A stretch of 36,719 nt of DNA from Amoebophrya sp. A120 (Eukaryota > Protista > Dinoflagellata): assembly GCA_905178155.1 (NCBI GenBank), contig CAJINV010000010.1, positions 997,837 through 1,034,555 on the forward strand. Reading direction: 5' to 3'. Made by a program: the position numbers and the translations under genes. Under the pieces are notes generated by a model. That model saw nothing but the letters and a program-made list of their open reading frames with translations. It had not been told where the DNA came from and did not search any database. How positions within the stretch are numbered: the first letter of the stretch is position 1; each line of letters starts with the position of its first letter. Below are positions 1,570 to 32,409 of this stretch, one piece after another.

Positions 1570-4500
1570 ATGACTGAGGACACGGCCCCTGTGTCTCCTC
1601 CGCCTCCGGTGCTTGATCACGAAAATTCCTCTCCTGGACGAGAGCAGCAGTTTCAGAAAATGGTTACCGATGGTGCAGCAGCTGAAGGAGGTCCTCATGA
1701 TCTTCTGGACGAGATCGTGGCGCAGACCCAGCAGCTGCTGTCTAGTGCCAACATCGAGAAGCCTATGGAGAGAAAAAAGTTTGTCACAGTCACTAACTTG
1801 CAGGTTTTGCACTACAAATTTTCTCAGCATCACAAACTTTCCTTGTGTTGCAGAAACACTAGGGAAATCCCTCATGAAGTTTGGCTGTGATGCATTTTTA
1901 CGCATGACAAGCAATTTTGTATTGCAAGAATGCGCATGAGTGATCGCGACGAACTTTTTTTCCTTGATAAAGCCCCGGCTAACCGCCGACCGCTTGAAGA
2001 AGCCGCCGTTCCTATTGAGAGGAAAAACCCCCCATCCCCATATTGAAAAGGTATGTTTCATCCGAAAATGTGTGTAGTTGCTGATTTGTGACCACAAATC
2101 AGGTTTGTCTTGCACGAAGACAAGTGCAGAGGCATCCGCCCAATTGTGAAGCGATTTGGCACGCTGTTGGTCCTAGATGGTAGCCGTTTGCAATGCTGAG
2201 CAACTAGACCCGAGCGCTGCCACCCAGGCTGCGGATCTGGCAGGAGTGCCGCACTGCAAGACAAGTCGGATTTGTGTACACAAATCAGCAACAGAAATTT
2301 TTATTTTGATATGGGGAGGGGGGATTTTTCATTTTGATAGTTCCGCTTTCTGTTTGATTTTTTGCACGCGCTAATCGAGAAATTCCCGGAAGAGCTCGAG
2401 GACCTCAAGACTTCGCTACCAGTATGCATTGCAAATAGTAATTGCTAATCGTAAGTAGTATTTATTGCAATACAAATAATTAGCTCAGCATGACAGAGGG
2501 AACTTGTCATGCCGATTTACCCTCCTGAGCAAGAGACTTGTCATGCGTGATTGCGATTACATACTTTTGCAATGCATAACCAGGAGGGGGCAGCAACTCG
2601 TCGCAGCCCCAGCTTCCGAACAGCAAGCAAGAGAAGTGCGATTGGCTCGACGCGTGGATCATTGCGGTCATGCAAGCGATATGCATTGCAAAAGTATCGT
2701 ACTCGTATGAATGCATTACAAATTTCCTCAGCATGAGAAAGAAAAATTGTAATGCGGATTTACCTTAACAGCAAGACTTAGTGCATGTTTGCAATTACTT
2801 TTACTACGAGTGCGATACTTTTGCACAGGATAAGCGAGCGCGGACCGGAACCCCTTCGAACCGCCCTCCTCGTTGAAAGTGGTATGCGGGCAGGAGGCGG
2901 AAAAGACAAATTTGCTGTTGCAGAGAACCTGGGACATGTGCGTCCGGAACAAGGAAGAGCTGAACAAGCCCATACCAGCAGGTATACTTGTAAGTGTAAG
3001 TGTATCGGGCAAGTAAAGGCGGAACAGCTGCGGCTTTGAGTTAAGTATTTTCATGCTGCAGCCAGCAGAAGTAACTACACCACACATGATACAGTGTCGT
3101 ACGAGCAATTCGTAATTCTTATACCAAACAATTTCAGATGACTTCTCCGCCGCATTGGCGACCATGACCACGTACAACCAGAAATGGCTGAACAGCAAAG
3201 AGTATCCACTGCAAAAAATAGAAACCCGGGAGGTCTGGCGGAGATGACTTGCGATGGTGCGTAGTCGTGGACGATGACCAAATCTTTATGTCTTCGGGAA
3301 AGTGGTCAGCCTAGCATGGGAAGACACGCCGTTCTTGGCACGGTTTCGCATGTAGTGCAGCGCGTTGATATTACACTGCATGAAGACATCAAAGGCAGCT
3401 GTGCTTCTGTTGGTCGTTACGCACAACAACCCAAAAAATTTCACATATAGCACCATACCGTGCAAGAGGACTAACACAGTGGAAGTTCTACCAGTCTCCA
3501 GGGCCAGCCTTGTACATATTTGCAATGCATAACAAGTACGAGAAAGTGCAGAAGATCGAGATGCCGGTAGATCTGGACGATGAGAACAGCGAAGAGGAAA
3601 TCGAGCATTTGGACAACGAGGACGATCATATGATCCAAGAAAAAAACTGTGCTGATGCGTCTTAGAGTTGTATTAGCATGACAAACTTGTTGCCCCACAT
3701 GACAGATAAAGTTTGTCATGCACAACGAGTTTAACTACGTGATGAAAACACACATGAAAACAAGAGGATATCATGGATGTCTGGCATGACAAGTGTGATT
3801 GTTTTGCTTTTTCTGCATGACAGACTTTGACTTATACTTACACAGCTTTTTTCATGCATAGACCACACGAAGACACTAGAAATAGATCCGGACAGAATCA
3901 TCGCGGAAGAAGACTCAGACGGGGAGATTTTGACAAAAGAGGAGCGTGTGCGGAAACAAGCCAGGGAAGATTTGCAGAAGGATGAGCGGTTCGCGAAAGT
4001 GCAAAACCTGTTGGACGAAATGGACGCGGTTCTCGGTTCGGACGACGATGACGGGAGGAATAACAGAAACACACGAGCAGGTGGGTCACAACAGAGTAGA
4101 ACTACTGGGTCAACATCTTTACCACACAGCCAGGTCGCGGCACCAGCAGCACCACTAGACCACAACAACTCCCCGCACCTGATGATGAATCGCAAACTGC
4201 ACCAGCAGGAAGCCGCCAGCTTCGCCCAGCGCCCGGAGAGCCGGGGGGAGCGGCTGCGACCGAGCAACCAAATGCAAGCGTATTTCCAGCAGCAGCAGCA
4301 GCAGATGGGGCACCACCTCCAGAGTGGTCAAAATATTGTGCAGAGTCGGATGGGAGGAGCCACACCAGCAGCATACGAAGACAACAATTCCTATGGAAGC
4401 GTCAGGATTGAAATCGTCAGAGTTGAAATAGTTTGTGATGCATAAAACGCAACCCACAAAAGGCCTGTCTTGCAGAGTAGGCAAGTTAGGCAGATTGTAA

Positions 4501-7500
4501 GCCTGTTGAGGGGTAGAAATATTAGAGCTGCTAAAGTAGCATCACAAAAGGCGCCTTCCTTACCCAAACAGCATGACAAACTGGATTTCGGTTCTACCCA
4601 GATTTGTCATGCGCCACTTGAAAACTAGGGGCCAACTGGTATTCGTTTTATGCATTACAAATTGTTTCAACTTTGTCGAGTTCAATCCTGACACTCCCAT
4701 AATTCCAAACTGCGGCCGTACGAGGGGAGCAGCTCTTCCGGATCCGGCTCGGAGTCGGAAATCTCCGACGCAGAGTCGTCACCAGAGCGGATGCGGCGGC
4801 CGACGCAACCACGTGGTAAAAACAACTATCCGGGGTCCTCGCTCGATTCCGAAGGACTGTCTTCCGCCTCGCCAGCCGCAAGGGGAACAAGAAACGAAGC
4901 GCGCAATAACAATAAGTTCCCGAAATCAAGAACAGCGGGCGGCGGGAAAAACGGCGCACGGATGATCACATCTATTAGTATTGGTTTTTCTCGATAAACC
5001 TAAGTGTTGGCCTAAGTGAATCCTAAGTAAAACCGAAGTAGTCCCTAAGTCTTTTTCCGGACTCGTGGCCGACGCAGAACCGCGGGAAAGTGGACCGGAA
5101 GAGGGCTCCAGCGGAAAGGAAAATCCCGCGGAAGCAAAACAAATTGGGGCGTATCGGCGCGGTGCAGGTACGTTCCGGCGGGCAAGATTATTGGGACCTG
5201 CTTAAAGAGAAAAAATAACAAGCGGCGTCCTGTTTGGCCGCGCAATGCAGGGGAAAATGCCGCGGGGACATGAAAAAAAGAGCCGGGGCACGAAAAAACT
5301 CGCGAAACTAGCCAAAAAACAAAAGGCGCGCGCAGCGTGGAGGGTGCTCCGCGCGGCTTTGCGGGCGACCGTCGGAGCTTGTGGATGCGTCGCGCGCTGC
5401 CCCGCCGGCGCCCCCGGCGCTTTCCGCCTGGAAGCCATTCTGTGGCGCTTTTTTGTGTCGAAAATAGCAAAAAGGGTCGCAGACTGAAGAAAAAAACTCG
5501 CAAACTCAAGAAAAAAGGTGGCAAACTGAAGAAGAAAAGTCGCAAGCTGAAGAAAAAAAGTTGCAAACTGAAGAAAAAAGGTGGCAACCTGAAGAAAAAA
5601 AGGCGGCGGCGGAGGGGCGCAAGGTACGGGGGCGCTTGCCGGGCGGCCTCGACAAGAGCCCGCGGACGCCGCCGCCACGGGGCCCCGCCCCCGGGGGGCG
5701 CCGAGGCGGGCGGGCCGGAGCCGTGTTCTGGCAGCCCTCCCGCCCGGGCCGCCTTCCGCGTTTTTTTTTTGGCGTTTTCGCCTTTTTTTTTCCGCAAAAA
5801 CGACAAAGCGGAAAGTGAATGGGTGCCTGTGGCACTCGGCAAAAACAGGAAGGCGGGTGGCGGAGTTCGGCCCGCAGCCCTCTGCAGCCAGCGGGACACA
5901 CGCCGCCAGGGGCCCTGCGCCGGGACGGCCCCGCGGGTGCGTGGGTTTCCCGCCGACGCGAACCCAGCATGGCCGCCGAAGGGGGCCGCGGCCGCTTCTT
6001 TTTTGTTCGCCCCGGCTTTTTTTTGCTGATTTTGCAGAAAAACTGCCCAGAAACGGGAAAAAAAGGGGCACCCCAGGCCCCCCGAAAGCCCAGGCGCCCG
6101 GGGTGCCGGCCCCGCCAAAGAAGGCGGAGAGACCATTTCGCGCTTTTTTTTGCCGTTTTCGCAGTTTTTTTTCGCGTTTTGCAGCTTTTTTTGCGGTGTT
6201 TTGCATATTCTGTTGCGTTTTGCCGGTTTTCATTCGAGTTGTTTCCCCCCAGCCAATGGCAGGCGAACTTTTTCTCCAACAATTGGCGGGAGGAAACTCG
6301 GCCGAAAATCGGGAAAATGCAAAAAAAAAAAGCAAAACGCGGAAAAAACCAGCAAAAAACGCGAAAAAAAGCTGCAAAACGCGAAAAAAAACTGCGAAAA
6401 CGGCAAAAAAAGCGCGAGGCGGTCTCTTGAAATTCCACAAGCAGCGCGCGCCTGTTCCACGTCGCAGCCAGGCGGAACCTGGTTGCCACCTAGGAAGCCG
6501 AAGCTGGCTGGGGCCTCCGTCGAATTGGGTGCAAAAATTGGAAGTGGAAGTCTCCGGCAAAGTCGAAACCGGGAGAAAAAATCTCCGGCAAAAGTTGGAA
6601 ATCCGGAAAACCCTAAGTGAGAGCTTGAGTGGGACCTAAGTGAAACCTAAGTCAGACCTAAGTCAAACCTAAGTCAAACCTAAGTGAATCCGCATGGTAT
6701 GGCCTAAGTTTCACTTAGGTTTCACTTAGGTTTCACTTAGGTTCCACTTAGGTTTCACTTAGGTTTCACTTAGGTTTCACTTAGGTTTCACTTAGGTTTC
6801 ACTTAGGTTTCACTTAGGTTTCACTTAGGGTTCCACTTAGGGGCTCACTTTTTTCACTTAGGTTTCATTTAGGTTTCACTTAGGTTCCACTTAGGTTCGA
6901 CTTAGGTTCCACTTAGGTCTCACCTAGGTTTTTCCGAATTTTCCAGCTTTTCCCGGAGATTTTGCCTTCCATTTTCGACTTTGCCGGAGATCTTTCCTTC
7001 CACTTTTTACTTCCAGCTCGACGGAGGTTTGACGCAGGCGCCAGCTTCCGCTTCCTAGGTAGCAACCAGACTTCGCCTGGCTGCGATGTAGAACAGGCGC
7101 GCGCTGCTTGTGCAATTCCGAGACTTTTTTTACCATTTTCGCAGTTTTTTTCTGCAAAACCGGAGAAAATAATCGCGAAAACAAAAAAACCTACGCGGGC
7201 GCCGGGGCCCCGTCAGCTTTCCGGATTTAATGTCGTGGCCTTTTTGGATTGTGGATTTTTGCGCGCGCGCCACATTTTTTGGCGTAAAAACCGAAAAAAA
7301 AGTGCTAAAAACCGAACAAAAAGCGCTAAATCGAAGAAAAAAACGGCGCCACGGCAAAATTGCTGAGACCCGCGGGGGCTTTGTGTTTTTGGCGTTTGCA
7401 ATTTTTACCCGCGCGGCCGGCGCCGCGGGCGGGGCGGGCAGCCGTTTGACCCTCCGGGGCCCCGCTGGGCTAGGTTTTGCATGTGGCCAGTTGGTTTTTT

Positions 7501-10500
7501 TTTGTGTGTTTTGCGATTTTTTTTCGCGTTTTGCCGCTTTGTTTGCTGTGTTTTGCATATTTTTTTCGTGCTTTGCCGGTTTTCAATCGAGCTGGCCCCC
7601 CCCCTCAGCCAATGGCAGGCGAACTTGTTCCCCAACAATTGGCGGGAGAAAACTCGACCGGGAACCGGGAGAACACCAAAAAAAGCAGCAAAACGCGAAA
7701 AAAAGCTGCAAAACGCGAAAAATGGCAAGTGCCCAGCTTGCGACGGGGCCGCTTTTGTTTTTCTTCCGCGAACGGGCCCTGGAGCCTTTCCAACTTTCCC
7801 AAACAAGAGGAAAAGTCGCAAAAGTTTCAGCGTCCGTTCGTGGGGGAAGAATGCAGCTGGCTGCGACCGTAGTGCCACTGTGTATACGGCGTCGGGCGGC
7901 GGCAGTAGGTGGGCAGCCGGTTTGTTCTCTCTCCCGCAGGCGGGTGTTGGGGCGCTATTTTGCAACTTTTCCAGAAGGGGGTGGAAAAGTCGCAACAGTT
8001 CCAGCCCGCCCGCGCGGGGGAAAGAACAAAATGGCTGCGGCCGTAGTGCCAACTTGTAAGCGCTGGCTGCCACACGACGGCACTACGTGGGCAGCCATTT
8101 TGTTCTTTCTCCCGCAAGGAGGGGCTGGGGCTTTTGCAAATTTCCCAAAAGCAAGAGTAGCAAACGGCCCAGCTCTTCTCTAGTGCAAACGCCGCGCAAA
8201 GAATCGCATCGCGCGGCGTCTCTTTTCCTTCTTTTCCCCGCTATGTCGCTGATTCGTAGGCGCGATTTTGCGTCGGGCCATTGTCGCGAAATTCATTTGT
8301 GTTGGGTCTAGTCTAAGCTGGTTGGCATGTTGGAAAGAAGACCGATGGAAATGCGCAGAACGCATCAAAATGCCATCGGTCTACGTATGGCAATCCAAAA
8401 TAATCAGAACAGAATCCAGATACTAAGCGGCTTTTGAAGCGAAACACGAGGGGAGTACACTTAGGAATCACTTAGGTCAAATAGTCCTTTATTGAGAAAG
8501 TCCACTAGTAACATCTAGTACTAGTTCCGCGCATGACGCAACAACTTTTGGTGCGCCGGGCGACGACGATTTTTCGGAGGAATCTGACCACGGGAACGAG
8601 ATCGTCTTGTCCGACGACGAGAGACGGAAGAAAAAAAAGAAGGAAAAACAACGGCAGCAAAACGTCGGCCAAAAATTTCCGCAAGCGAGAAGTGAAAATA
8701 AACACCAGCGGGCGCGCATGGTGGCAGAGCCGATTGTCACGATAGCGGACGCGAACGAGCAGGAAGAAAAAGAGCTTATGCACTGCAAGAGCATCGTATT
8801 GGTATTAGTATAAATTGCATCACAAATTTAGCTCAGCATGAAAAATTGAATTTTTCATGCTAAATTACCTAGGAAACCAGATTTGTCATGCTAGTCTGGC
8901 ATTTATACGATACTTTTGCACAGGATAGAGCTCTTGGAACAGCAATTGATAGATCTGCAAGTAGATGAACAACATGCGGAGCAAGATTCGTCCGGATTGA
9001 CTTTGAACGAGGATCTATCGCAAGAAAAAACTGTTTCACTGTGAACCTGTGATGCAGAAAATGGAACACAGAACTATTTGTCTTGCTACACCTGCAAGGC
9101 ATTGGATTTCCCCGCGTGTTTTCCCTTGGGAAGTGCGCATGACAAATTTTCAGCGTCATGCGTATACAAACTTGTGATGCAGATCTTGCAAAATCATCAT
9201 AGTGAAACACTTTTTTCGTGGGATAGGACCCAGACACCTCCAACCTAACGATTGCACCGGGAGAGGGGGAAGAAGAGACTTTGGTGTCTTCACCACAAAA
9301 GCAGCTGCAAGGGAACAACAAACAAGGACACCAGAACTTGAAGCACATCGAGTCGGAGCCCACTAACGTCGGCACAGATGTTGGAGAAGATGCTCTTGCT
9401 AGTGCAGCAGACTATGAAGAAGTAGAGAACTGTGTTGACGGCACCTCTCCGGGCGGGGGACACCGACAACGAGCAAAACAACAAGGCGATGAACAAGAAA
9501 ACAACGCACCGCCAGAAGACGAAGAGCAGCAGCTACAGCAGCTCGACCTCGCGAGTTTAACCATCAGCTCAACGGTGAAAACCATTTCCGAAGAGGCTGT
9601 CACCCGCTACGCAGGGGAACAGTTTCTCAACCAGCTACGACAAAATCTGGAAAACTACGTGACTTTTGTCGCAAACGCGCCGGTATCAAATGCGAATATG
9701 TCTGGGTCTGGAAGCGTTGTGCCAACTTGTCATGTTAAATCTGGATGATGCGAAAATCTGTGTTGCGTAAAAATGACCAATAGCTGTGCATTTTGGACCA
9801 TGTTGAGAGGGAGTTTCTCATGCAGGGTAGGCATGATACAGATCTTACAGAATCTGTCATGCTAGTTCCTGCATTCGAGACCTCACGCGTCATGGAAAAC
9901 TTGCATGACAGGTCTTGCATTCCGTCGCAGCCGTCCCAGACGTCCCAGACGCTGTTGTGTTTGTCTTTCGATAGAAATCGCGTTGTCCAGAGATTTCTTC
10001 TAGAGTTTACCGAGTATGTGGCTACAGTTTGTAGGAATAGTTTACGAGGGGACGCCCAGCCCTTAGCCTTCCAACATGACAGGTCTTGCATTCATCTTCC
10101 AAACCCAGACAAATATTTGCATTTGATAGCCGGCCAGCAGCCTGGTGAAGCAGGTGCAGCTGGTTGAGAAAAATAATGGAAATGAGGAGGAGGATGAGGA
10201 AGAAACAGATAAAACCCCGGAGCAAAGATTTTACCAGCAGGCCGTCGTGGTGTCTATGTTTCAGCAGATTCTTCTCGGTTTACAATTGCACACACGGTTG
10301 TTGAGCTCATCTGGTGGAGCCGAGCAACAAGAAATGATCACGGAAGTAATCGCAGGTTCTTTGTCGGAGTTCGGACTGGTGGAGGAGTTGAAAGAAAAAG
10401 CGCTTGCGAGTTCCTCTTCTCCCGATGGTGCTGGTTTAGTGGACCAGCAACTTGGTACAGCAATTAGAACAACTTCTTCGCTGCTGCATTATCAAATGTA

Positions 10501-20058: not shown

Positions 20059-23000
20059 ATGGCAGAAACAAGGAGGCCCGCCTCGACGTCCCCAGAAGCG
20101 GAAGAGGAAGTTAGCGGATCGCAGGAGGACGAGCAGCAGGCCAGGAGCAGAACGCATGAACGGAGTGGAGCAGAGACGCAGAACTATAGCTCGAGCGTTG
20201 TTCTGTCCGGAGAGGACGAGGTGCTCCCCGAGGAAGAAGATCCGTCACAGGGAGGTAATGTTAATGTTTCTGGAACAAATCAAAACAAGTGCCGGTTTTG
20301 TCTCTCTGGCGAGGAGGATGGGGAGTTGTTCACGCCCTGCGGCTATCAAATGTAAAAATGTCTGGGTCTGGAAGAATGCATGTTTGTCATACTTGTCTGG
20401 CATGACTATTAAATCTGTCATGCACGTTGCCCAAGAGCCGCATTTTTCTGCCATGCGGAGACGCAATTTGTCATGCAGAATAGGCAACACCTACAAGCTC
20501 AGAAATTTGTCATGCTGAGCCAGCACTTGTGGCCTCTTCATGCTACGCCACTCAGCATCACAAGTTTCCAGATCCAGACATTTTTGCAGTTGATAGCGGC
20601 TGCCTCGGAAGCAGCAAGTACGTGCACCTGCACTGTCTCCGCGCGTGGCAGCGCACGGTCCAGCTCCAGATGCGCGACGACGGGCCGGCCGCGGGTCGTG
20701 CAGAAGGCCGGGGAGGGGGCAACGCTGCGGCCGGGGAGAGGGAAAACGAAAATGACGCGAACATCAATGTGGGGCCAGGAACTACTCCTGGAGAGGAGCC
20801 ACGACCCCGGGAACAAGAGGTAGAAGAGCAGAACAAGGAACAGCGGCACGAGAGATGCTCGCTCTGTCTGCAAAAGTTTCAGCCCGGATTTGAGCCCCTG
20901 TCGCGGTCTATCAAATGCAAATATGTCTGGGTCTGGAAGAATGCAAAACTTGTCATGCGAATTTTACGTGACCCACACCCATGACGCCTGTAATGCATAA
21001 TATAGCATCGCAGATTTTTAGAGGGCTTCCTGATCCCTATTGCGTATGAGAAACAAATGCCCTCTCAATGTAGCACAAACTGGACCCCTCTTGCTGGGTA
21101 TGCAATACAGATTTTTTGAGAGTGAAGAGACACCATCACAAGTTGCATCCTTCCAGACCCAGACATATTTGCAATGCATACGGTCGGAGTTTCTGCAAGA
21201 CCTGTGTAAGAAAACAGAGCAGGACTTCGACATCGGGACGCTGTTCGTACACGAGCGGGAGCGGGGTAGGAATTTGAGGCTGCAGTCATTGCCGTTCATG
21301 CTGCGGGTCATTGTGGAAATGAAGCACCAGCACTTCCGGAACGCGTGTTACCTATTAGTTATCAAATGTAAAAATGTCTGGGTCTGGAAGAATGCAACTT
21401 GTCATGCTAAATCTGAAGCATGTAAAAATCTGTGTTGGATGTGCATGATTACCAAAAGTCGCCCAGTTTTGACCAAGTCGGGAGGGAGTTTCTCACGCAG
21501 GATAGGCATGAGAAAGATCGCACAGAATCTGTCATGCTAGGTCCTGCATTCCAGACCTCATGGGTCATGGAAAATCTGCATGACAAATCTCACATTCTTC
21601 CAGACCCAGACATTTTTACACTTGATATTAGTGGATGAGGAGCAAAATGAGGCGGAAAGCAGTACGCCCGTGGGGACAAAAACTACCACGATTGGGAACA
21701 ACGTCGATAAAACTAGTGAACGCGCGAAGCGAAAGGTGATCGGTTTTAACTTGGTACGCCCGATCTCCCTGACGCCGGACGAATTATCCTGAGAAAGAAG
21801 TGTCACAGTTCAGTTGCGCACTCTGACCGAAGACAAGCAAGACAGACAACCTATGTCATGCAGGAAATGCTTGCCAGCCTGCCTCATTTCATTCTTGTTT
21901 TCGCTTATAGTCTCCTGCGCATCACAGGTTTTCTTTGCCATGTCGAGCAACTTTGTGATGCAGAAACTCCAACAGGTGTGTAACTGTAACACTTTGTTCC
22001 TGTGATACGAATGGAACCTGAAATACTCGTCGCTCCGGGACTTCATCAGCGAAAAACCCAGCATCAAGGTCTACGTGCTGGCTATCGCAAGAAAAAACTG
22101 TTTCACTGTGAATTTGTGATGCAGAAAATGGAACACAGAACTCTTTGCCTTGCTACACCTGCAAGGCGTTGGATTTTCAAGCGGGTTTTCCCTTGGGAAG
22201 CGCGCATGACAAATTTTCAGTGTCATGCGTAGAAAATTGTGATGCAGATCCTGCAAAGTCATCACAGTGAACCAGTTTTTTCGTGGGATACTGGCCGGCG
22301 GCCCCTGCCATCCACGGGCCGCGAAGGGACTGGCTGTTTTAGACCGGGAATTGCTGCAGGCTGAGTTCAACAAGTTTGGTCTACATGGTGCGGGCGGGGG
22401 ACGAGGAGAGAACTCCACCTCGTCCTTTCGGCAACAAATCGTGCTGAAACAGTTATTGGACTATTTTGTAGTCGATAATATAGGTCCTGTTCCACCTGCA
22501 CCGGCGGAGCAGGGAGTAGGAGTGGAGAAGATACGCATTGGAAATTTTTTTTATATATATGTCTGGGTTTGTTTTGTGTGGAATATTGCAAGACACTTCT
22601 AAAATTGCTGGGCTCGTCGCAGGACCACACTGGATTCTGTGATGCGTGTTTCTGCGCATGATCCGCATGAGAGCATGAAAATTTTCCAGACCCAAACATA
22701 GAATTTGCGTTCGATAGAAAAAAGATGCTGCTCCAGCTAGTAGTTCTACGTCTTCGAGCGCTTCCACTCGCGGCGAGGCGGGCGGTGAACAAAGCTGCAG
22801 CTCCGAAACAAGAACTGTAAAAATATCTTCCTCGCCGTCCTTGTGTACTTCAACTTCTAAGGAAGAACCCACGTCGTCGTCGTCGTTGTGGTCCTCCACC
22901 CACGGCCCGCGCGGTTGGATCCCGTGCAAGGCCATTGCCGCAATCACAGAAGCAGCAGGGCGGGAGCGAGGTTTTCCATCTCCAGAGGAGATACATGAAA

Positions 23001-23695
23001 AGATGAATCAACAGGATGAACTAATTGTACAACCACCTCAAGAATTGATTCCTGCAAGGAACAACTACAGCGAGGATGAAACTAGAAACGAAGCAGCAGG
23101 GAAGGAGGTGAAAACGAGGATATTAAGCGAGCGCGAAGTTTTCCATCTCCGCGTAGTCGAAGTGGACTTCACTAAAAATCGGCTACTAGTCTACGCCACC
23201 GACTTTCACCACTTCATGAACCTGCACGGCCTGCGCAACAGCGTGCGTGACTATCTCGCGCTAGTCTTGGGACAGGCGGAGTGGGACAGCACCCAACTAT
23301 TGGGAGAGTATTGCAAGGGAAACTGGGGTCTACTACAACAACACCCGATAGAATTACGTCGAAACAGCACGAATGATGGTAATGGCGAAGCAGAGGGACG
23401 CGAGCGTGTCGTGGCTGCTGCTGTGAAGAGTACTACAGAAAAGACATTCCGCAGAAACGACTGCAACTTTTTCCGGAACAATCTGAATACCATCCTGCCT
23501 GCGAACGTGTTTGACGCACTGGAGCCAAAGTCTCGGTTCACGGAGGCAAACGAGATGCAGGCACAGCATGCCAGGGACCGCCAACTGGGGCAGACTATGG
23601 GGGAGAACGCAGAGGCAGTACCGTATGAAGACCCGGGAATCATGCGGATGGCGAGACAGCTGGAACAGCAAGTCAGAAATCGGGCGCCGGACTAG
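20059..23695 (+). CDS. Spliced gene, ~732 aa: RING-CH (RINGv, MARCH-type) zinc finger fused to a DUF179/AlgH/YqgE-like domain; putative E3 ubiquitin ligase
   Basis: Exons 20059-20343, 20601-20908, 21186-21359, 21633-21784, 22013-22082, 22296-22531, 22722-23695, giving a 2199-nt open frame. CRFC..PCGCLGSSKYVHLHCLRAW..CSLC is a C4HC3 finger. GFNLVRP, VYVLAGGP and LVLGQAEWDSTQLLGEYCKGNW resemble DUF179 motifs. Confidence 0.85.
20344..20595. mobile_element. Introner family B, 252 bp
   Basis: DR GCGGC/GCGGC; splits the RING motif PCG|C. Confidence 0.93.
20909..21180. mobile_element. Introner family B, 272 bp
   Basis: DR CGGTC/CGGTC; family B TIRs. Confidence 0.93.
21360..21627. mobile_element. 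Introner family B, 268 bp
   Basis: DR TTAGT/TTAGT; family B TIRs. Confidence 0.93.
21785..22007. mobile_element. Introner family G, 223 bp
   Basis: TIR core AAGTGT.ACAGTT; DR CGAAT/CGAAT; relative at 28369. Confidence 0.92.
22083..22290. mobile_element. Introner family D, 208 bp
   Basis: DR CTGGC/CTGGC; family D TIRs. Confidence 0.92.
22532..22716. mobile_element. Degenerate family B-like introner, 185 bp
   Basis: TATGTCTGGGT / ACCCAAACATA; DR GAAGA/GAAAA; frame restored. Confidence 0.8.
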
Positions 23696-24526
23696 ACTTG
23701 TGAATGTATTATTAAATAGTTCTAACACATCGCTCACGATCATCTGGAATTTTGAACCGCCGATGAAATAAGAACCCGGAAGAACAAGAAGATCATGCTG
23801 CTAGTTCTTCATTGCGCGGACATATTTTCAGGTAGTAGCCAAGAAGATCGAAGATGCGCGGGACCACGGACGAGTGTCAGCACCAAACTGGAACAAATCC
23901 GCATGATTTCATCTATTGTGACGTTGAGTTCTTGTTGCAAGATCCTACGCCGCGCCCTGGTTTTTCGAGCGGGTGGAGGCGATGAGAACACCTACTTTTT
24001 CGACCGTTGTTTCTGGGATTCTTTTCTGTCCTTGAGTGAGAGAGACGCCAGTTTATAATTTTGTGTGCAGTTTTCGTTTTGTAAGTTGTTCTGTTTCTTT
24101 CCTTTCTCTGAGGGAGGCCTGCTTGACGGGAGAGAGAAAGGTTTGCGCATGCAGCTCTGCTAAAAGGTTCCTAGAGCGACGCTGAGGTAGGTAGAGGGAG
24201 ATAGCACTTTAACCTGCGTTGTTTCCTGCCTTCTATTTACAGAGTTGTGAATCTTCCTCCTGTCCAGCTAAATCGATGGAGTACTATAAATTTTTTTTCC
24301 TTCTTCCATTGTTCAACGCACATCCGAAATTTTTTTTGATTCAAGTACTTGCAGCACCCACACTTAAATGAACGAGTAGTGACGTTTAATATTTCGTCGT
24401 GTGTGCTTGTACTGCCGCAAAGAAACTACAAATAGCAGGCGCCAAGCTTTGTCGAGCAAGAGCTCGTCTTTTGCGCACCCCGCGGCTGCCCTACTCGACG
24501 GTGGCCACGTTATTTGAGGACATATA

Positions 24527-25217
24527 CTAGCCAACAATGCTCGCCTCCCTCTTCGCCGTTTCTTTCAACGACTGCTTCGTCGGGTTCCTCCTCGTGAAGC
24601 TAACCATGCTGCTGTATCAAAATGAAAAATCCCTCTCCCCAACATATCAAAACGGAAATTTGCGATGCTGATTTGTGACCACAAATCAGCTTTGTATTGC
24701 AGAGAGGCACTGCGGCCAGATCCCCGGGCTAGGTAGGGGCGTATGGGTCTAGTAGTTCAGCATGGCAAACGGCCCCCCTTTAGGCCCACCAGCATGACAA
24801 ATCGCTTCCATAATGGGGCGGAGGCTTCTGCCCTTGTCTTCTTGCAAGACAGACGTGATCTGTGTCCTCAAATCTGCAACGCAAATTCTTGGAAACATAC
24901 CGTTTCAATATGGGGAGGGGGGATTTTTCCTCTCAGTATGTTGATGTGTGAAGCGCGGAAAAGTTTGCGGCTCCCGGACGCCCGAGTCAGGAAATTGTTG
25001 TGGGACAGTTGCTATCCCGTGCAAAAGTATCGTGCTAGTATGAATTGCATCACTAATTCGCTCAAGTACAGAATTTCAATTTGTCATGCTACTTTGGGTA
25101 GAAAGTTGGGTTTGTAATGCATGCTCGCAATCACTACGAGTACGATGCTTTTGCACTGCATAGTTGCTTGTCACTTCGGGACTCACCGCCGATAATGTAG
25201 TACGTCGTGAACATCAT
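24527..25217 (-). CDS. Small two-intron hypothetical gene (~68 aa); strand uncertain
   Basis: Removing elements 24615-24938 and 25013-25162 (+5 bp each) gives MMFTTYYIIGGESRSDKQLSHNNFLTRASGSRKLF..EASIVG* on the minus strand. A 59-aa plus-strand frame (24537-25200) is also open. No recognisable motif. Confidence 0.4.
24615..24938. mobile_element. Introner family C, 324 bp
   Basis: DR TGCTG/TGTTG; reverse orientation relative to the copy at 2013. Confidence 0.9.
25013..25162. mobile_element. Introner family A, 150 bp
   Basis: DR GTTGC/GTTGC; family A TIRs. Confidence 0.92.
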
Positions 25218-25396
25218 TATATCAACTTCTACACGAGCTGCCGCTCATTTTCAACGAACTCTCTCTCTGCAGGAGACACGCACACGGCCGCATCTTATTC
25301 GCGACAGGTAGTTGTGCCCCGCGCACCAAGTAATTAAAAGACAGCAAAAATCGGGTGAAGACGATATTACGTCGGAAATAAAAGTAAAACAACCAC

Positions 25397-28300
25397 ATGA
25401 CGACTGGCGCAGCGGTAAAACAATCAGAGTTTCCATCTGTGATGTCGGGGAAAAGGTACGATGAACATCCACTCCCGGCGGACCAGAACGTGGTCATTGG
25501 AAGGGTAATCACGACGAGCGGGCTCCTCATCGACGGCAGAGCAGCTAGTACAGGAAACGACAAAAACTACTCCCATAGCACTACCACGACCGCTTTGGGC
25601 AGCAGCGCACACGAGAATCGCAAAATGAGTTCAACACCTACTACAGCTAGAAGGACGAAGGAGAAGCTGTATCAGGCCTCCCTCGGATATATGCATTGCA
25701 AAAATGTCTGGGTCTGGAAGGATGCAAGGTCTGTCATGCTTGTCTGGCATGAGTAAAGAGCTTGCAATGCGTGTCCAAGAAAAGACTCTTTTGCTTGTCA
25801 TGCAAAAACGCAGTTTGTCATGCGAAAACTGCAACACAAAGCCTCGCAAATTTTTTCTCATGCTTGCCTGTGCATTAGACAGCATTCACGTATTCACAGC
25901 CCAGCATTACAAGTGTCCAGACCCAGACATATTGGCATTTGATAAGCAACGCCGTGTCCTTCGCGTTTTTCGCTTGTTGGGTGCGGTTTCTCACCCTGTA
26001 CTTCCTTTCCATATCCTGCTCGGCCAGCCAGATCGGGCTGCTCGTGTCATCCGGGAAACTGACCACCATGCTGACCGGCCCCATCGGCGCTTACCTGGCA
26101 GACAAATCACGGGAGGCGAAGCTGGTTTTGCTGTTTTCCATCGGGTTTAGCATGCTGAGTTTCGCAGCAATCCCCCTGACGGTGGTGGACGCGAGCCAAA
26201 GTTTCTATCCGGAGCACTTAGAATTATACCGACACCGTACTAATTTATTTTACAATTTCAACTCTGCTATACAGTTACATCAGAAACATACAGTCAAGAA
26301 GTTTTGGGTAAAAATATTGCGCATGACATCAACAAGTCCGGAGTTGTCGGTAGATACGTTTTTCAACGGCACACTATCGGCACCTTGTTCTTTCTCTATG
26401 TGACCTTCAACATCCTCCGGGCGCCGCAGGGTTCGCTTTTGGACGCTCTGATTCTTGAAATGTCGGAAAAAGATAGGGATGTGTGGTCGAAGAGCCGCAT
26501 GTGGGGCGCAATCAGCTGGGGCGCGACACACGTGGTGCTTGGGTTCATGCTAAGCCATTCAAACGGAAGCTTTCTTCCGATGTGGGGTGGGTATCAGGTA
26601 TAGATATGGAAGATTTCTAACTCGATCTGTGATGTGTGTACTAACTTCTACTGAAAATAACCTCTTTATTAATAAACAAACAGCTAATTGGCCTGCTTTT
26701 TCTCTATACGGGCAAGAAACTGTTCCCAAAACACGCGGGGAAGGATATCAAAAGACAAAAATCCCACCTCCCCATATCGAAAACGAAATTTGTGATGCTG
26801 TATTTGAGTACACCAATCGATTTGTAATGCTAGAAGGCCAAGCACCGCAGTTGTGGCCTCGTTTGCAGGCAATTTGTCATGCTGTTTCCCACTTCCAGCT
26901 GCCTCCTTTCGTGCTAAAGATGCAAGGCCTTGTTCCCTTCCCACGACACCCAGAACTACAGTCCGCATCTTTTCCCTTCTAGCATAACAAAGCTGGTCTG
27001 TGGCCACAAATCTGCATCACAGATTTCCTTTTGGATATGGGGTGGGGGGATTTTTCTTGTTCATAAAGGACTCGGCTCCGGTGAACTACGACCTCCTGAC
27101 CCAAATGGTGAAACAGCGGAAAGTATGCATTGCAAAAGTATCGTACTCGTTGTAATTGCATGCCCGCATTACAAATTTTTTTCTTAAGTTGAATCCGCAT
27201 TACAAATTTCATTTCTCATGCTGAGAAAATTTGTGATGCAATTCATACTAGTACGATGCTTTTGCACTGCATAGAAAGTCTTTTTTCTCAATCTGACCAT
27301 GATTGGCGGGGGGTTTTCGCTCGTGGAAGCCATGTTGTTTCTCGCGTTAGATGAATTGAACGCGACTCCGCTCCTGTATAACCTGCTCAGGTGATACACT
27401 CTCAAACGTTACAATAGAATCTGGAATTTGTGTTGCAAGAATTGCATACTCTAGCCAACTCTCATAGGACGATTGCGCATGACAAGTTCTGGAGTCCTAA
27501 TCCTCACTACAATCTGGCGAAATTTGTATTGCAGAAAGTGGAATGGTCTGCGAGTCTGTCATGCTCATTATGCAGGACAAATCCCAGACTCTATTGTAAC
27601 GTTTGAGATTGTATCGTTTGAGCAGGTCATATCCTGTGCGGCATGAGTGTTTTGACCACGGTGATTTTCGAGCTACCGATTTTCTACTACGGGGAATACC
27701 TGCTCGAAACGCCTATGGACTGCAAATATGTCTGGGTCCTCTGGGGGATTGCGAGGTTTGTCATGCTAGTCTGGCATGACTCTGAGTTCTGTATTGCGTT
27801 GCCGCAAAGAGCTCCTCTTGCCTGTCATGCAAAAACGCAGTTTCTATTTCTAATGCGGGGCACGCAACTCAGAACCACGGAAAAACTTGTCATGCTTGGC
27901 AGTGCATTACAGTGTACTCACTGCAGTTCCATCAATTGCATCACAAGTAGTTTCCAGACCCAGTCCCAGACATATTTGCATTTGATAACGCTCGGTGCGA
28001 AGCAAATGATCCTCCTCGGACAAGCCGCTTGGGTGTTCCGCGCCATCTTCTACGCCTGGATGCTATCAACTGCAAATATGTCTGGGTCTGGAAGGAACCT
28101 GTGATGCTGTGTTGCGCATGACTGCAACTACGCTTGCAATTGCAGCCGAGCATGACAAACTTTCGGACCGCTTTCTGCTGCCTGACGCGCATTACAAAAT
28201 GCGTTTTTGCCTAACAAGGGAAGCTGCTGCTCACTTGTTGCTCATGCAACACAGATTTTCCAGGAATGCAAGGCACGCAAGACAAGTTCCACCTTTTCAG

Positions 28301-29534
28301 ACCCAGGCGTATTTGCAATGCATAGATGCCCAAGGCGGACTACGTGCTGCTCGTGGAACCGCTTCACGTATCGTGAGAAAAAAGTGTTACAGTTACACGC
28401 TCTGATGCAAGATAGCAAGACAGACAACCTCTGTCATGCAGGAAATGCCAGCCAGCCTCATTTCGTTCGTGTTTTCCCTTATAGTCTGCGCATCACAAGT
28501 TTTGCTTGCCATGCAGAGCAACTTTGTCATGCTGAAACTCCAACAAATGTGTAACTGTATACACTTTTTTCCTGTGATATCACGGCGTCACCTTCGCCCT
28601 GGTGTTCATCGCGGCCGTCCAGGAGACGAACAAACTCGCTCCAGACGGCATGAAATCCTCCGCGCAGGCGGTGTTGGGATTTACCTTCGGAGGTATAGGT
28701 CCTTGCGTCGTCGTTTTCCTCGGGGGCCTGTTGTTTGACTGGATCGGCTATGCATTGCAAATCTGTCTAGGTCTGGGTACTTGTGATGCAAGCAAGGGAA
28801 GACGAAGAGCGAGCGCACTGTTGTAATGTGCTCCCCAGCATGACAAGTTTTTCCGTGGTTCAGAGTTGCGTACTGCGCATGAGAAACTCCGTTTTTACAT
28901 GACAGACGAGAGGAGCCCTTCCCGGGCACGCAATACACAGTTCAGAGTCATGCCAGACTAGCATGTTGACAAATCTCGCAATCTCCCAGACCCAGACATA
29001 TTTGCATTTGATATCGGCTACAAAAAATCGTTTTTCGGGTTCGCGATACTGGTGCTGGCGAGCATGGGCGTGTATTACTTCGCGAGAGAGGAGGAAAACG
29101 AAAATGACGTGGAAATAGGACGAGCAATACCCGTAGCTGTCGAAAGTGCGGAAAGCGCTCTTGAAGATAGCAACATGACTAGTTCATCTCGGCAAGTTGT
29201 GCAACTCGAAGATGCGCAACACCTTCACGGGGGCAGCCACGACTTTGAACTCGAAGTTGAGGAAACCATCGCCAGTCCTGCGGTCCGTGAGCGCGGCAGA
29301 GAAGAAGACGATGTCGAATCAATGACCCCGACCAACTTTGGAAAAACTACTTCCGCGAAAAAGAAGCACCAAAATAAACTACAGCAACAACAGCACCTCG
29401 TCCGCACGACAAGCAGCGGGGTGAAGGCGAGTTACCAAAGAGCGGACTCGTCAAGTCCGGAGAAAGAGTTGTACGATAACAGGAGGGGCGGTAGGACATC
29501 ACCAGGTGGAGAAGGTACAACTAGTGTGGAGTAA
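25397..29534 (+). CDS. Spliced gene, ~627 aa: major facilitator superfamily transporter, MFSD6/MFS_1_like type
   Basis: Exons 25397-25689, 25950-26224, 26362-26597, 26684-26745, 27071-27123, 27279-27376, 27637-27713, 27993-28063, 28330-28368, 28585-28748, 29019-29534, giving a 1884-nt open frame. Many hydrophobic helices; motifs GAYLADK, WSKSRMWGAISWG, FELPIFYYG, VEPLHGVTFAL, APDGMKSSAQA, GGLLFD. Confidence 0.88.
25690..25944. mobile_element. Introner family B, 255 bp
   Basis: Family B TIRs; the DR has decayed (GGATA/AGCAA) but +5 removal restores the frame. Confidence 0.88.
26225..26356. mobile_element. Old, degenerate introner, ~132 bp
   Basis: Residual IR TACCGACA/TGTCGGTA with TA ends; DR decayed (AGAAT/CGTTT); +5 removal restores the frame. 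Boundaries are less certain. Confidence 0.55.
26598..26683 (+). other. Canonical GT-AG intron, 86 bp, with a TACTAAC branch-point-like word at 26639-26645
   Basis: CAG|GTATAG..AAACAG|CTA; phase 0; AT-rich. Confidence 0.85.
26746..27065. mobile_element. Introner family C, 320 bp
   Basis: DR AAGGA/AAGGA; family C TIRs. Confidence 0.92.
27124..27273. mobile_element. Introner family A, 150 bp
   Basis: DR GAAAG/GAAAG; family A TIRs. Confidence 0.93.
27377..27631. mobile_element. Introner family H, 255 bp, ~55-bp TIR
   Basis: TAT.ACCTGCTCA..GATACA.TCTCAAACGTTACAATAGA; DR TCCTG/TCCTG. Confidence 0.92.
27714..27987. mobile_element. Introner family B, 274 bp
   Basis: DR ACGCC/ACGCT; family B TIRs. 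Confidence 0.9.
28064..28324. mobile_element. Introner family B, 261 bp
   Basis: DR GATGC/GATGC; family B TIRs. Confidence 0.92.
28369..28579. mobile_element. Introner family G, 211 bp
   Basis: DR TCACG/TCACG; splits EPLH|G. Confidence 0.92.
28749..29013. mobile_element. Introner family B, 265 bp
   Basis: DR TCGGC/TCGGC; reverse-oriented relative of 27714. Confidence 0.92.
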
Positions 29535-30370
29535 CCTGCTGTTCACCGACTGCACGTGTTATTTGTCCGGTTCAATAGGAGAAGTAGATTCTCGGGCTTT
29601 ATTCTCATCTCATTACCTCTCCACATCCGTCGAAAATATTAAGCGGCTTTCACTTTATTGCTATTCGGCATGTTTGACTTTTTGGACACAAACCGCCCTC
29701 GCGCCCCCCCTCTGAAGTTTTCTATTGAAATTTCAATTTGTGAAAATTTGTTGTCATGCAGTACTTGTACTATTTCCCCTTCGGTAGTACAAGCTAGCAG
29801 ATGAGAGCTTTTCAACAATCCTGGTCCTGTACAATCAGACTCACTCAGATTCTGTTGTTTCGGTTTCATCTGTATCTTCGGAGAATTTCAGCCGTGACCG
29901 CGTACAATGGCAGTGCGTTTTTATCTCGACATCGAAAACGAAAAGAATGGCACCGTTGACCTGATAGTTTCTATTCAGCCTCCCGCCGTGTTTCACAATA
30001 AAGATGAACAAGTCTCATCAACGACAAGTACCTCGGTGCCAACATCTCAAATCAAGTCTTATTTCTGTAGTTTGTGTAGCTTGTTTATGTTTCACAACGC
30101 GATTTCTTGTGGATGGCGATGGTGTCGTCATATTTCCTTCCTTCGGTCGACGGTACACTCTGCTTGAAACTGCCCGGACTTCGTTCTCTTTGATCATTCT
30201 AAAGCTAAGAGTGCAACAAGAGCTAACTACGCTCGACTCGCAGTTGCGGTCACTTCGGTGTTGGCATTCTTATATGCTTCGAACAAACTAAGTAGCATGA
30301 TGTAGTTGCAACAATATTTATTAGAAGACGACTCGTACATCTTTGTCTTTCAAGAGTTGTTTACATCAAG

Positions 30371-32409
30371 ATGGCTCCGCCCGCGACCTCTTCGAAAAAC
30401 TCGGAATGCGTGAAAGTGGTCGTCCGGTGCCGCCCCATGTCCGGCCAAGAGATCCAGGACGGGCGGCAGCAGGTAGTTTTTATGAACGCCAAAATGGGTA
30501 GTGCAACGCTGCTATGCTTTGCAAATATGTCTGGGTCTGGAAGAGTGCAGAGTTTGTCATGCGCGTCAGCCAAGCGTCCCAGTTTTCTGTCATGCGGAAG
30601 CGCAGTTTGCCATGCAGAACGGGCAACACCTAGCAGCTCGAAAACTTGTGATGCGTGGCGACCAATTATTGGGACGTGTCCAAGATTCTTCAGCCAGCAT
30701 CAGAAGTTTCCAGACCCGGACATATTTGCATTTGATAGCTGCAGAAACCGGAGGGGAGCTCGAAGGACAGCAAGGATTTTACCTACGATGCGGTGTACGA
30801 CGCAGAATGTATGCATTGCAAAAGTCTGGATGTCGCACTAGTGGTAATTGCAATACAAATTTGCTCAGCATCAGCCACACAATTTGTATTGCTGCTTCAG
30901 CTCAAGACTGACATGTGTAATGCATGATTGCGATATACTAGTAGCGCGATGTTTTTGCACAGCATAGAAGCCACCCAACAGCAGATTTACGAGGAAACGG
31001 CTTCTTCGATCGTGGAATCTGTATCCAAGAAAAAAACCATGTGAGTGTAAATCTGTGATGCAGAAAGTGCAAACTTGTTCTTGTATACGATTGTCATGCT
31101 AGATGTGCGTCCTAGGCGACTTTGATACAACGTGTTTTCACGTGCTAGTTGCGCGTGACAGGTTTTTTCTGTAATGCAAAGCGAATTTTTGATGCTGCTC
31201 TTCCTTTACAAAGTTACACTTCCACAGTTTTTTTCCTGGATAATCTGTCATGGAGGGCTACAACGGCACGGTGTTATCGCATGCAAAGAAGCATGGAGCA
31301 GGGGTCTGGAAACTTGTGATGCTGATACCTGAATTAGAATAAATTAATTTCAGAGCGGCTGCCTGTACTGTTATTCTTATTCATAATAGCATCAGAAGTT
31401 TTTTAGGCTTGTTGCAGATTCATTCGCAACTACACGCATATGAGATGACAAACACAAGCCGGCATGCAGCACGACAAGAGAAATTAGAAAATGGACAATC
31501 ATATTCATGGATCACAGACCTTGTCGTCCTCCAAACCCAAAGCTCGCAAGAGAAGACAAACCCAGACCAAGACATAATTTTTGCAAATTCCATACTTCTT
31601 CGCCTACGGCCAAACGGGGTCCGGGAAGACACACACCATGGTATTACAACGAAAAATGCCCCCACCCTCGAACTTGAAAGCATTTGTATTGCAAACCTTT
31701 CCAAATGAAACATTCGCCCTCTTGCATGTATCAGCATCACAGATTTCATCCGATCGTGAATAGCAAAAATTTGTATCGGATGTCGATAAATATTACTAAA
31801 CAAATGAGAGTGCGTCCCCGGGCCCCTTGTTGAATCCGCAAAATGCTGCGGGTCGTGCTAATAATTCCTCAACTTTCTCGCGCCCGCTCTTTTTCTCTTG
31901 AGAAGAATGCCCGTCGCGCCCTTCGTTTTTTTTGAGGAGATTCANNNNNNNNNNNNNNNNNNNNNNNNNNNNNNNNNNNNNNNNNNNNNNNNNNNNNNNN
32001 NNNNNNNNNNNNNNNNNNNNNNNNNNNNNNNNNNNNNNNNNNNNTCCTTTCATGCATGACAAAAAGTTTTCATTTGGAAACTTCGCATCACAAATTTTTG
32101 CAACTGTGGGGTGGGGAGCACTTTTCACTGTAATACATGGCCGGCCCGAGTTCCGGCGGGGCGGAGCAGAAGGGATTGCTGCCGAGGGCGTTTGACCACA
32201 TTTTCAACGACATCAAGACCGCAGATATTGGCGTGCGGAACTTTTTGGTGCGGGCGTCTTTTCTGGAGATTTACAACGAGGAAATCCGGGATTTATTGTC
32301 GAAGGTGGACGTGAAGGCGAGATGCGATTTGAAGGAGCACCCGACCAGCGGGGTTTATGTCAAGGACTTGTCCGCATTTGTCGTCAAGGGCGTGGAAGAA
32401 ATACAGCAG
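30371..32409 (+). CDS. Kinesin-2 family (KIF3/KIF17-like) motor, 5' part; the gene continues beyond the window
   Basis: Exons 30371-30512, 30743-30809, 30972-31021, 31248-31274, 31600-31641, 32141-~32409. They read [46 protein letters not shown] (P-loop)..[34 protein letters not shown]. Confidence 0.93.
30513..30737. mobile_element. Introner family B, 225 bp
   Basis: DR GCTGC/GCTGC; family B TIRs. Confidence 0.93.
30810..30966. mobile_element. Introner family A, 157 bp
   Basis: DR GAATG/GAAGC; frame restored. Confidence 0.9.
31022..31242. mobile_element. Introner (D-related TIR), 221 bp
   Basis: TATCCARGAAAAAAA TIR; DR ATCTG/ATCTG. Confidence 0.92.
31275..31594. mobile_element. Degenerate family B-like introner, 320 bp
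   Basis: DR decayed (GGTGT/CTTCT); removal gives GYNGTVFAYGQTG. Confidence 0.85.
31642..32135. mobile_element. Introner (F-related TIR) spanning an assembly gap (Ns at 31945-32044); true length unknown
   Basis: TATTACA..GAAAA.TGC.CCC.ACCC TIR; DR CATGG/CATGG. Confidence 0.88.

Follow-up and report, generated by a model that had tools for sequence, protein, structure and literature searches.

Five genes in a 36,719-nucleotide (nt) stretch of the dinoflagellate Amoebophrya sp. A120 genome (contig CAJINV010000010.1; hereafter the window) are interrupted by transposon-like insertions of the type called introners, which begin with TA and lie between 5-bp direct repeats (DRs). We found 43 such exon-interrupting elements between positions 1764 and 32135 (32 of them with perfect DRs), as the first-pass annotation had proposed, and one more within a canonical intron. 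The elements are removed at the RNA level, a conclusion that we regard as close to certain, and the removals seen in contigs take out the element plus exactly 5 nt. The cut is probably made at a fixed register, one nt before the leading TAT and four nt after the closing ATA (N/UAU...AUA-NNNN/, the slash marking the cut; -1/+4 in what follows). The elements stay in the DNA and are missing from likely-RNA contigs. The likeliest agent of their removal, by a modest preference, is a derived spliceosome that lacks U1.

Absence from likely-RNA contigs and retention in DNA

Elements were collected by scans for TA-bounded inverted repeats, one requiring a partial DR and the other blind to DRs, and their bounds and predicted gaps were set before comparison with the read contigs. 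The first yield, also 43, counted the intronic element at 15249-16636, while the element at 26206-26373 was added later from a 173-nt gap in the RNA. A 117-nt GT-AG intron at 26237-26353 had been tried there; it broke the reading frame, and the 173-nt RNA joint was used instead.

The RNA evidence consists of contigs from runs X3-X6, all of one sample, which show the majority form only. We took these runs as RNA because the canonical 86-nt intron is spliced in them and their depth is zero at the intergenic positions 29980-30173. Twelve joints of element length plus 5 nt were each found in all four likely-RNA runs (one of these elements having been bounded afterwards), and two more sites give the same length directly, namely 20344 through adjoining contig pieces and 31642 through a loose end at 31641 that continues as the sequence from 32141 onward in 4/4 runs. 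Thirteen further elements are accounted for by exact sums over pieces of X3 (2813 over six gaps, 546, 1181 and 260 nt, the last, for element 25690, by subtraction). In all, likely-RNA contigs support 27 of the 43 removals and the annotation 14, the remaining two being 24615 and 25013. No alternative joint was detected at any element end in the four runs at a threshold of 3%. The gaps of element length plus 5 nt expected by the first-pass annotation were therefore seen at 14 sites directly and at 13 by sums.

Removal of element plus 5 nt gives open reading frames (ORFs) of 992, 543, 732 and 615 amino acids (aa) plus 199 aa of a kinesin. The earlier argument that this length restores the frame holds as far as the ORFs are open, but the frame cannot separate +5 from +2 or +8, which mostly preserve long frames too, so it is the RNA contigs that set +5. 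For 24615 and 25013, located in a 59-aa ORF or 5' untranslated region (UTR), the frame test has little meaning.

A single run, X1, was judged to be DNA by its even depth of ~46-55 outside the elements, intergenic sequence included; it is possibly the source of the assembly. All 8 listed DNA contigs pass from exons into elements at a depth of 40-52, and they hold elements 18606, 22532, 25013, 26206 and 31275 intact and free of differences, four of these five being absent from the RNA contigs. Since five elements are kept intact in DNA contigs, excision of DNA is unlikely, although the joints of X1 are swamped by repeats (15 seen and 1124 more) and rare excised alleles could escape.

Probable register of the cut and its requirements

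At DRs whose copies have diverged, the bases that stay can be read from the transcript. Elements 18606, 22532, 25690, 30810 and 31275 place the donor at -1 or later, 26206 and 3203 at -2 or later (3203 from the annotation), and 27714 and 30810 at -1 or earlier; only -1/+4 fits all 8 informative junctions, and none conflict. For elements whose DRs have not diverged we infer the same register, N/UAU-N7-AAA...UUU-N7-AUA-NNNN/. Aligned in this way, the elements have T at +2 and A at +3 in 43/43 and T at +4 in 41/43. Towards the 3' end, positions -19 to -15 form a T tract and -7 to -5 read ATA, but the four closing bases (-1 and -2 included) are near random, as is +1. It had been claimed that no register yields GT..AG, and this fails at one element of the 43: the intron at 30809-30970 is GT..AG, and exactly that junction is used in 4/4 likely-RNA runs. 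The retained DR bases come from the left copy at positions 1-4 in 7/7 cases and from the right copy at position 5 in 2/2 (8 junctions). The cut is thus asymmetric along the sense strand, as seen in five genes that all lie on one strand and with no reversed family copy bearing a diverged DR.

Several features of the elements can be dispensed with. DR identity is one of them, since 25690 and 31275, with only two of five positions shared, are removed exactly; because such elements are spliced, the DR is a relic of the target site and not a signal. G at +1 and a terminal AG are also dispensable (12/43 elements start with GT and 2/43 end with AG), in line with the independence from GT/AG that had been proposed, and so is a perfect closing TA, given that 18606 (ending TT) and 26206 (ending CA) are removed. 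Folding of 41 elements predicted strong stems or high pairing of the mirrored ends for most. However, the ends of 31275, 22532 and 3203 pair no better than unrelated ends (for 31275, -9.7 kcal/mol, the null mean being -13.2), yet all three are cut at +5, so a strong terminal stem is probably dispensable as well. Together with 26206, another weak-duplex element cut at +5, they weaken the earlier suggestion of guidance by structure. A search for branch points in the 43 elements found no consensus (CTRAC in 2/43; YTRAY in 17 versus 14 in a mirror control). Both orientations are spliced, as had been stated: family B elements 27714 and 30513 are in one orientation and 28064 and 28749 in the reverse, and all four show +5 in the RNA contigs. 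This independence follows from the symmetric termini and is therefore uninformative on which machine acts.

Candidate machineries

In the mechanism that we somewhat favour, a transposon would insert and duplicate 5 bp (DRs of this pattern are seen, the transposase is putative) and element plus 5 nt would be removed from transcripts by a spliceosome that reads U+2/A+3/U+4 as a donor without G, canonical donors here being GUAU, and that measures the acceptor from the U tract and the AUA motif rather than by scanning for AG. Either orientation would be spliced because both ends bear the same motif, and the gene restored because exactly one DR length is removed. At the fitted register UAU sits where canonical donors have it (3/3 verified donors begin with GTAT). 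Of 89 spliceosomal proteins, 83 were found in A120, but no U1 small nuclear RNA (PMC7789003); a U1-less spliceosome is described in C. merolae. The MITE-derived introns of Fritillaria, too, are spliceosomal (PMC11282704). A bolder proposition, towards which we lean slightly less than away from it, is that this one code serves the tens of thousands of non-canonical introns of A120 by way of a U1-less spliceosome. If so, members of this transposon group up to 3.5 kb long would be cleanly spliced out wherever and in whichever orientation they insert, and with age a copy could become an ordinary GT-AG intron by drift (30809-30970).

A number of points weigh against a spliceosome or against the register itself. 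The elements show neither a pull toward spliceosomal ends nor a branch-point consensus, the likeness to GTAT comes from three introns and may be chance, most elements have strong predicted terminal stems, and comparable introns of euglenids are released as circles without lariats (PMC11282704). The upper bound of the register comes from two junctions, 27714 and 30810, and its non-canonical upper bound from 27714 alone, because 30810, being GT-AG, might follow the ordinary splicing rule. When diverged DRs were polarised by codon likelihood in a second assembly (from a metagenome collection; 156 loci, 416 kb; 47 mismatches in 38 strand-called elements), the register received no support, and at DR position 5 the test opposed it in 6/7 cases, with small margins. 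All 18 predominant non-canonical end pairs in Table S4 of Farhat et al. have T at +2 (PMC7789003), which is consistent with the register but could be explained by aligner placement. The RNA status of X3-X6 is a tool's guess combined with the splicing pattern. Finally, element 18606 is gone from the X3 RNA contig, yet the annotated P0122 keeps it; its splicing may be inefficient.

Cutting of RNA at the same -1/+4 by a non-spliceosomal endonuclease that binds the paired termini, followed by a ligase, as proposed for euglenozoan introns, is a serious contender that we hold to be somewhat less probable. The high predicted pairing of mirrored termini in most folded elements and the missing G+1, AG and branch-point signals would suit it. 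Euglena has a paired motif with fixed spacers (5'-N3CDG...CH'G-N5-6/R; PMC12501133) in introns that yield circles, and for diplonemids a route resembling RNase III processing or tRNA splicing has been suggested (PMC12621601). However, the weak-duplex elements 31275, 22532 and 3203 are still cut at +5, and the register sets U+2/A+3 at canonical-donor positions. The geometry also implies a 3-nt 3' stagger, as against the 2 nt familiar from RNase III. On balance, we prefer the derived spliceosome to the endonuclease and ligase. A register that varies inside the DR, with the agreement among junctions partly due to chance, appears improbable. Such variation is implied by the legend of Fig. 3 in Farhat et al., where the position of splice sites varies with respect to the hairpin and the border is given as unknown (PMC7789003), and it would accord with the small number of informative junctions, the single non-GT-AG upper bound, contigs that display the majority form only and the silence of the codon-likelihood test. 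Yet the 8 informative junctions agree, and the four runs hold no alternative joints at the 3% threshold.

By far the least probable explanation is excision of the elements from DNA in the growing parasite nucleus, in the manner of internal eliminated sequences (IESs), with transcription from element-free templates, an option that the first-pass annotation had kept and that we disfavour. Transposon ends, TA termini and clean removal would all be expected from such a process, and the DNA evidence comes from one run, perhaps the assembly source. However, every listed contig of that run enters elements and five elements are intact in it. At each of the 8 informative junctions, moreover, the DR bases that remain conform to the sense strand, which is not what a symmetric DNA cut predicts. 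Excision of Paramecium IESs leaves one TA behind, and no TA is left at the RNA joints. The second assembly holds the same families, though without a split between germline and soma excised elements would be lost; to our knowledge, no such split is known in Amoebophrya.

A fixed cut site would narrow down the splicing machinery of A120 introners. Roughly 65% of A120 introns lack GT-AG; that they were reported to have "no clear signature" could be due to junctions that slide within the 5-bp repeat, and a fixed -1/+4 register would collapse many dinucleotide classes into one rule, a ruler-type code that can be compared with that of Euglena. It would supply exact ends for assays of circles, lariats and end chemistry, and it would correct gene models such as the annotated kinesin without its P-loop exons and the gene 2 model that retains an element.

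Element families, host genes and known systems

All 43 exon-interrupting elements start with TA; 41 end with TA, one with TT and one, 26206-26373, with CA, so that the TA...TA rule of the first-pass annotation stands for the starts and nearly all ends but not for the last. DR copies agree at 5/5 positions in 32 elements, 4/5 in 6, 3/5 in 3 and 2/5 in 2, and the identity per position is 37-41/43 across the five DR positions versus 3-15/43 outside them. By position counts at both ends, the terminal inverted repeats (TIRs) start with TAT-N7-AAA, a few old elements being degenerate. BLAST grouped the 44 elements into 7 multi-member families and 13 singletons with both orientations present, and it confirmed the opposite orientations of 4392 and 16862 and of 10490 and 21360. 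Of the 316 elements that a DR-blind search detected in the second assembly, 243 have a perfect 5-bp DR, while each other DR length from 2 to 9 accounted for at most 31; given this dominance, the 5 bp are the target-site duplication (TSD). No strong target sequence was apparent at these 316 elements in 416 kb. Relatives of 34 of the 44 window elements occur there, up to 97.6% identical. The data support the classification of the elements as non-autonomous TIR DNA-transposon introners, similar to miniature inverted-repeat transposable elements (MITEs), with 5-bp TSDs, and with it the transposon origin and precise removal of element and one DR that had been proposed. Neither an autonomous partner nor a transposase was found in the window or among the 316 elements, Pfam recognised no domain in 10 long ORFs taken from the two largest elements, stop-free frames reach no more than 85-137 aa in four long elements, and an Rfam search gave no match.

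In the largest element (4973-8510), which is spliced out in the annotated protein, inverted repeats are nested and an 11-bp unit is tandemly arrayed at 6676-6964. An internal motif, GCAT[G/C/T]ACA[A/G], is present in either orientation in 38/44 elements of unrelated families; 102 of its 105 matches in the window fall inside elements and none in 9460 exonic bases. It may be a common binding site for a transposase or a host protein. DRs start at codon position 3 in 77 of 148 strand-called perfect-DR sites of the second assembly (phase 0 at the fitted register) and in 17/41 sites of the window, a pattern that a palindromic target preference could explain. An enrichment of G at DR position 4 (60/148, p ~0.005, second assembly), for which codon phase is a confounder, was set aside as evidence. 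A joint at 30549-30708, inside an element and seen in X3 only at a depth of 5.6, was read as a related copy.

The coordinates of all features are collected in the table. The A120 proteins P0001, P0121 and P0122 are 100% identical over the exons queried, and by sequence the window is an A120-type genome, that is, the genome of the introners of Farhat et al. (2021). The predicted spliced product of gene 1 matches P0121 at 992/992 residues, at registers 3-5. Gene 2 is identical to P0122 over approximately the first 528 residues, after which P0122 runs into element 18606. Its protein is caspase-like, as it had been labelled, only by the SGHG/DACYSG motif; a Pfam search matched nothing and a PDB search nothing meaningful. 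For gene 3, the predicted mRNA of 20001-23902 measures 2464 nt, the length of the matching RNA contig (record 10). Upstream of the MFS gene, 24537-25200 contains the 59-aa ORF with two elements, which is a 5' UTR, an upstream ORF or a separate gene; the RNA contig of the MFS gene extends 319 nt upstream of 25162. P0001, the kinesin matched by the gene 5 exon, begins in the annotation after the gap-containing element, and the N-terminal P-loop exons (30371-32140) that it misses are present in RNA contigs. A 70-bp tandem satellite at 33809-34742 and 36054-36719 is probably within a long kinesin intron starting at ~32410.

Table. Features of the window. Elements carry no strand (.); DR, left/right copy; P0121 or P0122, spliced in that annotated protein; sums, joints and gaps are those of likely-RNA contigs
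Feature	Position	Strand	DR	Remarks
Gene 1	1570..12179	+		MIP-T3/IFT54-like, 992 aa; 14 elements, 1 canonical intron; PF10243
Gene 2	13932..18922	+		543 aa, SGHG/DACYSG motifs; 7 exonic elements, 1584-nt canonical intron
Gene 3	20059..23695	+		RING-variant protein, 732 aa; 6 elements; weak RINGv match
Gene 4	25397..29534	+		MFS_1-like transporter, 615 aa; 9 elements, 86-nt canonical intron
Gene 5	30371..32409	+		kinesin 5' part; 5 elements; 199 aa after removal
Canonical GT-AG intron	2982..3137	+		GTATAC...; required for identity with P0121
Canonical GT-AG intron	15228..16811	+		GTATAA...; contains element 15249-16636; sum 2813; P0122
Canonical GT-AG intron	26598..26683	+		GTATAG..., with TACTAAC; 86-nt joint in 4/4 runs
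Element	1764..1969	.	AAGCC/AAGCC	P0121
Element	2013..2339	.	GTTCC perfect	P0121
Element	2423..2578	.	ACCAG perfect	P0121
Element	2680..2832	.	AGCGA perfect	P0121
Element	3203..3531	.	AAGAG/ACAAG	weak terminal duplex; P0121 permits only registers 3-5
Element	3629..3860	.	GATCA/GACCA	P0121
Element	4392..4701	.	ATTCC perfect	opposite to 16862; P0121
Element, 3538 bp	4973..8510	.	ACATC perfect	internal repeats, no Pfam domain; P0121
Element	8777..8927	.	GAGCT perfect	P0121
Element	9016..9225	.	GGATC/GGACC	P0121
Element, family B	9684..10128	.	GCCGG perfect	P0121
Element, family B	10490..11238	.	TGCAT perfect	13-bp tandem insert; P0121
Element	11308..11635	.	GTTGA perfect	P0121
Element	11783..12053	.	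CTCAA perfect	P0121
Element	14563..14717	.	CAACC perfect	sum 2813; P0122
Element	14762..15084	.	GTTTA perfect	sum 2813; P0122
Element, 1388 bp, non-exonic	15249..16636	.	CATTT perfect	inside canonical intron 15228-16811; perfect TIR
Element	16862..17161	.	ACGGG perfect	at SGHG motif; sum 2813; P0122
Element	17203..17364	.	ACCTA perfect	sum 2813; P0122
Element, family B	17477..17740	.	CAGGA perfect	sum 2813; P0122
Element	18277..18546	.	TGGAA perfect	sum 546; P0122
Element ending TT	18606..18871	.	CCGGG/CCGAG	donor -1 or later; intact in DNA contig
Element, family B	20344..20595	.	GCGGC perfect	in RING finger; 257-nt gap between adjoining contig pieces
Element, family B	20909..21180	.	CGGTC perfect	sum 1181
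Element, family B	21360..21627	.	TTAGT perfect	opposite to 10490; sum 1181
Element	21785..22007	.	CGAAT perfect	sum 1181
Element	22083..22290	.	CTGGC perfect	sum 1181
Element	22532..22716	.	GAAGA/GAAAA	weak duplex; donor -1 or later; RNA restarts at 22721; intact in DNA
Element ending GTA	24615..24938	.	TGCTG/TGTTG	in short ORF or 5' UTR
Element	25013..25162	.	GTTGC perfect	in short ORF or 5' UTR; intact in DNA contig
Element, family B	25690..25944	.	GGATA/AGCAA (2/5)	donor -1 or later; 260 nt by subtraction, piece ends 25688
Element, degenerate, ending CA	26206..26373	.	GTTTC/CTATC	donor -2 to 0; 173-nt joint in 4/4 runs; intact in DNA
Element	26746..27065	.	AAGGA perfect	325-nt joint
Element	27124..27273	.	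GAAAG perfect	155-nt joint
Element	27377..27631	.	TCCTG perfect	260-nt joint; internal CAG/GT...CAG/GT pair unused
Element, family B	27714..27987	.	ACGCC/ACGCT	279-nt joint, range -6 to -1; donor -1 or earlier
Element, family B (reverse)	28064..28324	.	GATGC perfect	266-nt joint
Element	28369..28579	.	TCACG perfect	216-nt joint
Element, family B (reverse)	28749..29013	.	TCGGC perfect	270-nt joint
Element, family B	30513..30737	.	GCTGC perfect	230-nt joint
Element	30810..30966	.	GAATG/GAAGC	162-nt unambiguous joint; intron 30809-30970 is GT..AG, exactly -1/+4
Element	31022..31242	.	ATCTG perfect	226-nt joint
Element	31275..31594	.	GGTGT/CTTCT (2/5)	weak duplex; donor -1 to +1; 325-nt joint; intact in DNA
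Element with assembly gap (Ns)	31642..32135	.	CATGG perfect	directly after P-loop

This class of element has been described before from this genome, together with its 5-bp DR and TAT-N7-AAA ends, and the register is a refinement from a small sample rather than a new system. The link to Farhat et al. (2021) drawn by the first-pass annotation is supported, and the elements that it described are essentially real, but they are not a novel class, and the public annotation already splices most of them. Farhat et al. describe A120 introners whose inverted repeats begin with TAT-N7-AAA and whose DRs measure 3-5 nt, one of 5 bp being illustrated in the legend of Fig. S19; their intron analysis was restricted to 40-1000 bp (PMC7789003). 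Their introners and those of the window share the genome, the ends, a length of ~240 nt, the grouping in families, the RNA support and a mechanism left open, and here we found non-GT-AG ends (42/43), removals supported by likely-RNA contigs (27/43), TIRs of 8-20 nt, DRs and families without transposase. Unlike in that description, a single DR length and a single register suffice for every informative junction of the window, and the 3538-bp element obeys the same rule. Two reviews and a later Amoebophrya genome paper repeat the description by Farhat et al. Our literature search found no later statement of a fixed register, although figures of Farhat et al. or closed papers may contain one. The A120 families of Gozashti et al. 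2025 (PMC12130899) are likewise TIR DNA-transposon introners, many with non-canonical ends; in 21 of its 58 A120 rows, the ends are scattered, TSD calls range from 2 to 5, co-option varies by family and no common register is apparent.

Among other systems, the non-conventional introns of Euglena (Nomura et al. 2025, PMC12501133) are alike in lacking GT-AG, in their paired terminal motif with fixed unequal spacers, in coexisting with GT-AG introns and in bearing TSD-like repeats. However, Euglena has CDG/CH'G with spacers of 3 and 5-6 and a purine at the start of exon 2, whereas A120 has TAT/ATA with spacers of 1 and 4 and no exon preference (N-TAT...ATA-N4, without purine bias). The lineages are unrelated, and the Euglena motif was tested by knock-in, whereas the A120 register is fitted to contigs and annotation. 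Introns of Fritillaria borealis (Henriet 2019, via PMC11282704) are MITE-derived, with TIR and TSD, and are handled by an adapted U2 spliceosome; they prefer AG-AC/AG-AT in an exonic TAC context, whereas +1, -1 and -2 are free in A120. The introners of Micromonas, Aureococcus and Symbiodiniaceae (PMC9860276) are, as here, TIR/TSD transposons that become introns on insertion, but they carry or co-opt canonical sites, whereas U2-type GT/GC-AG ends occur at the fitted register in 1/43 elements of the A120 window.

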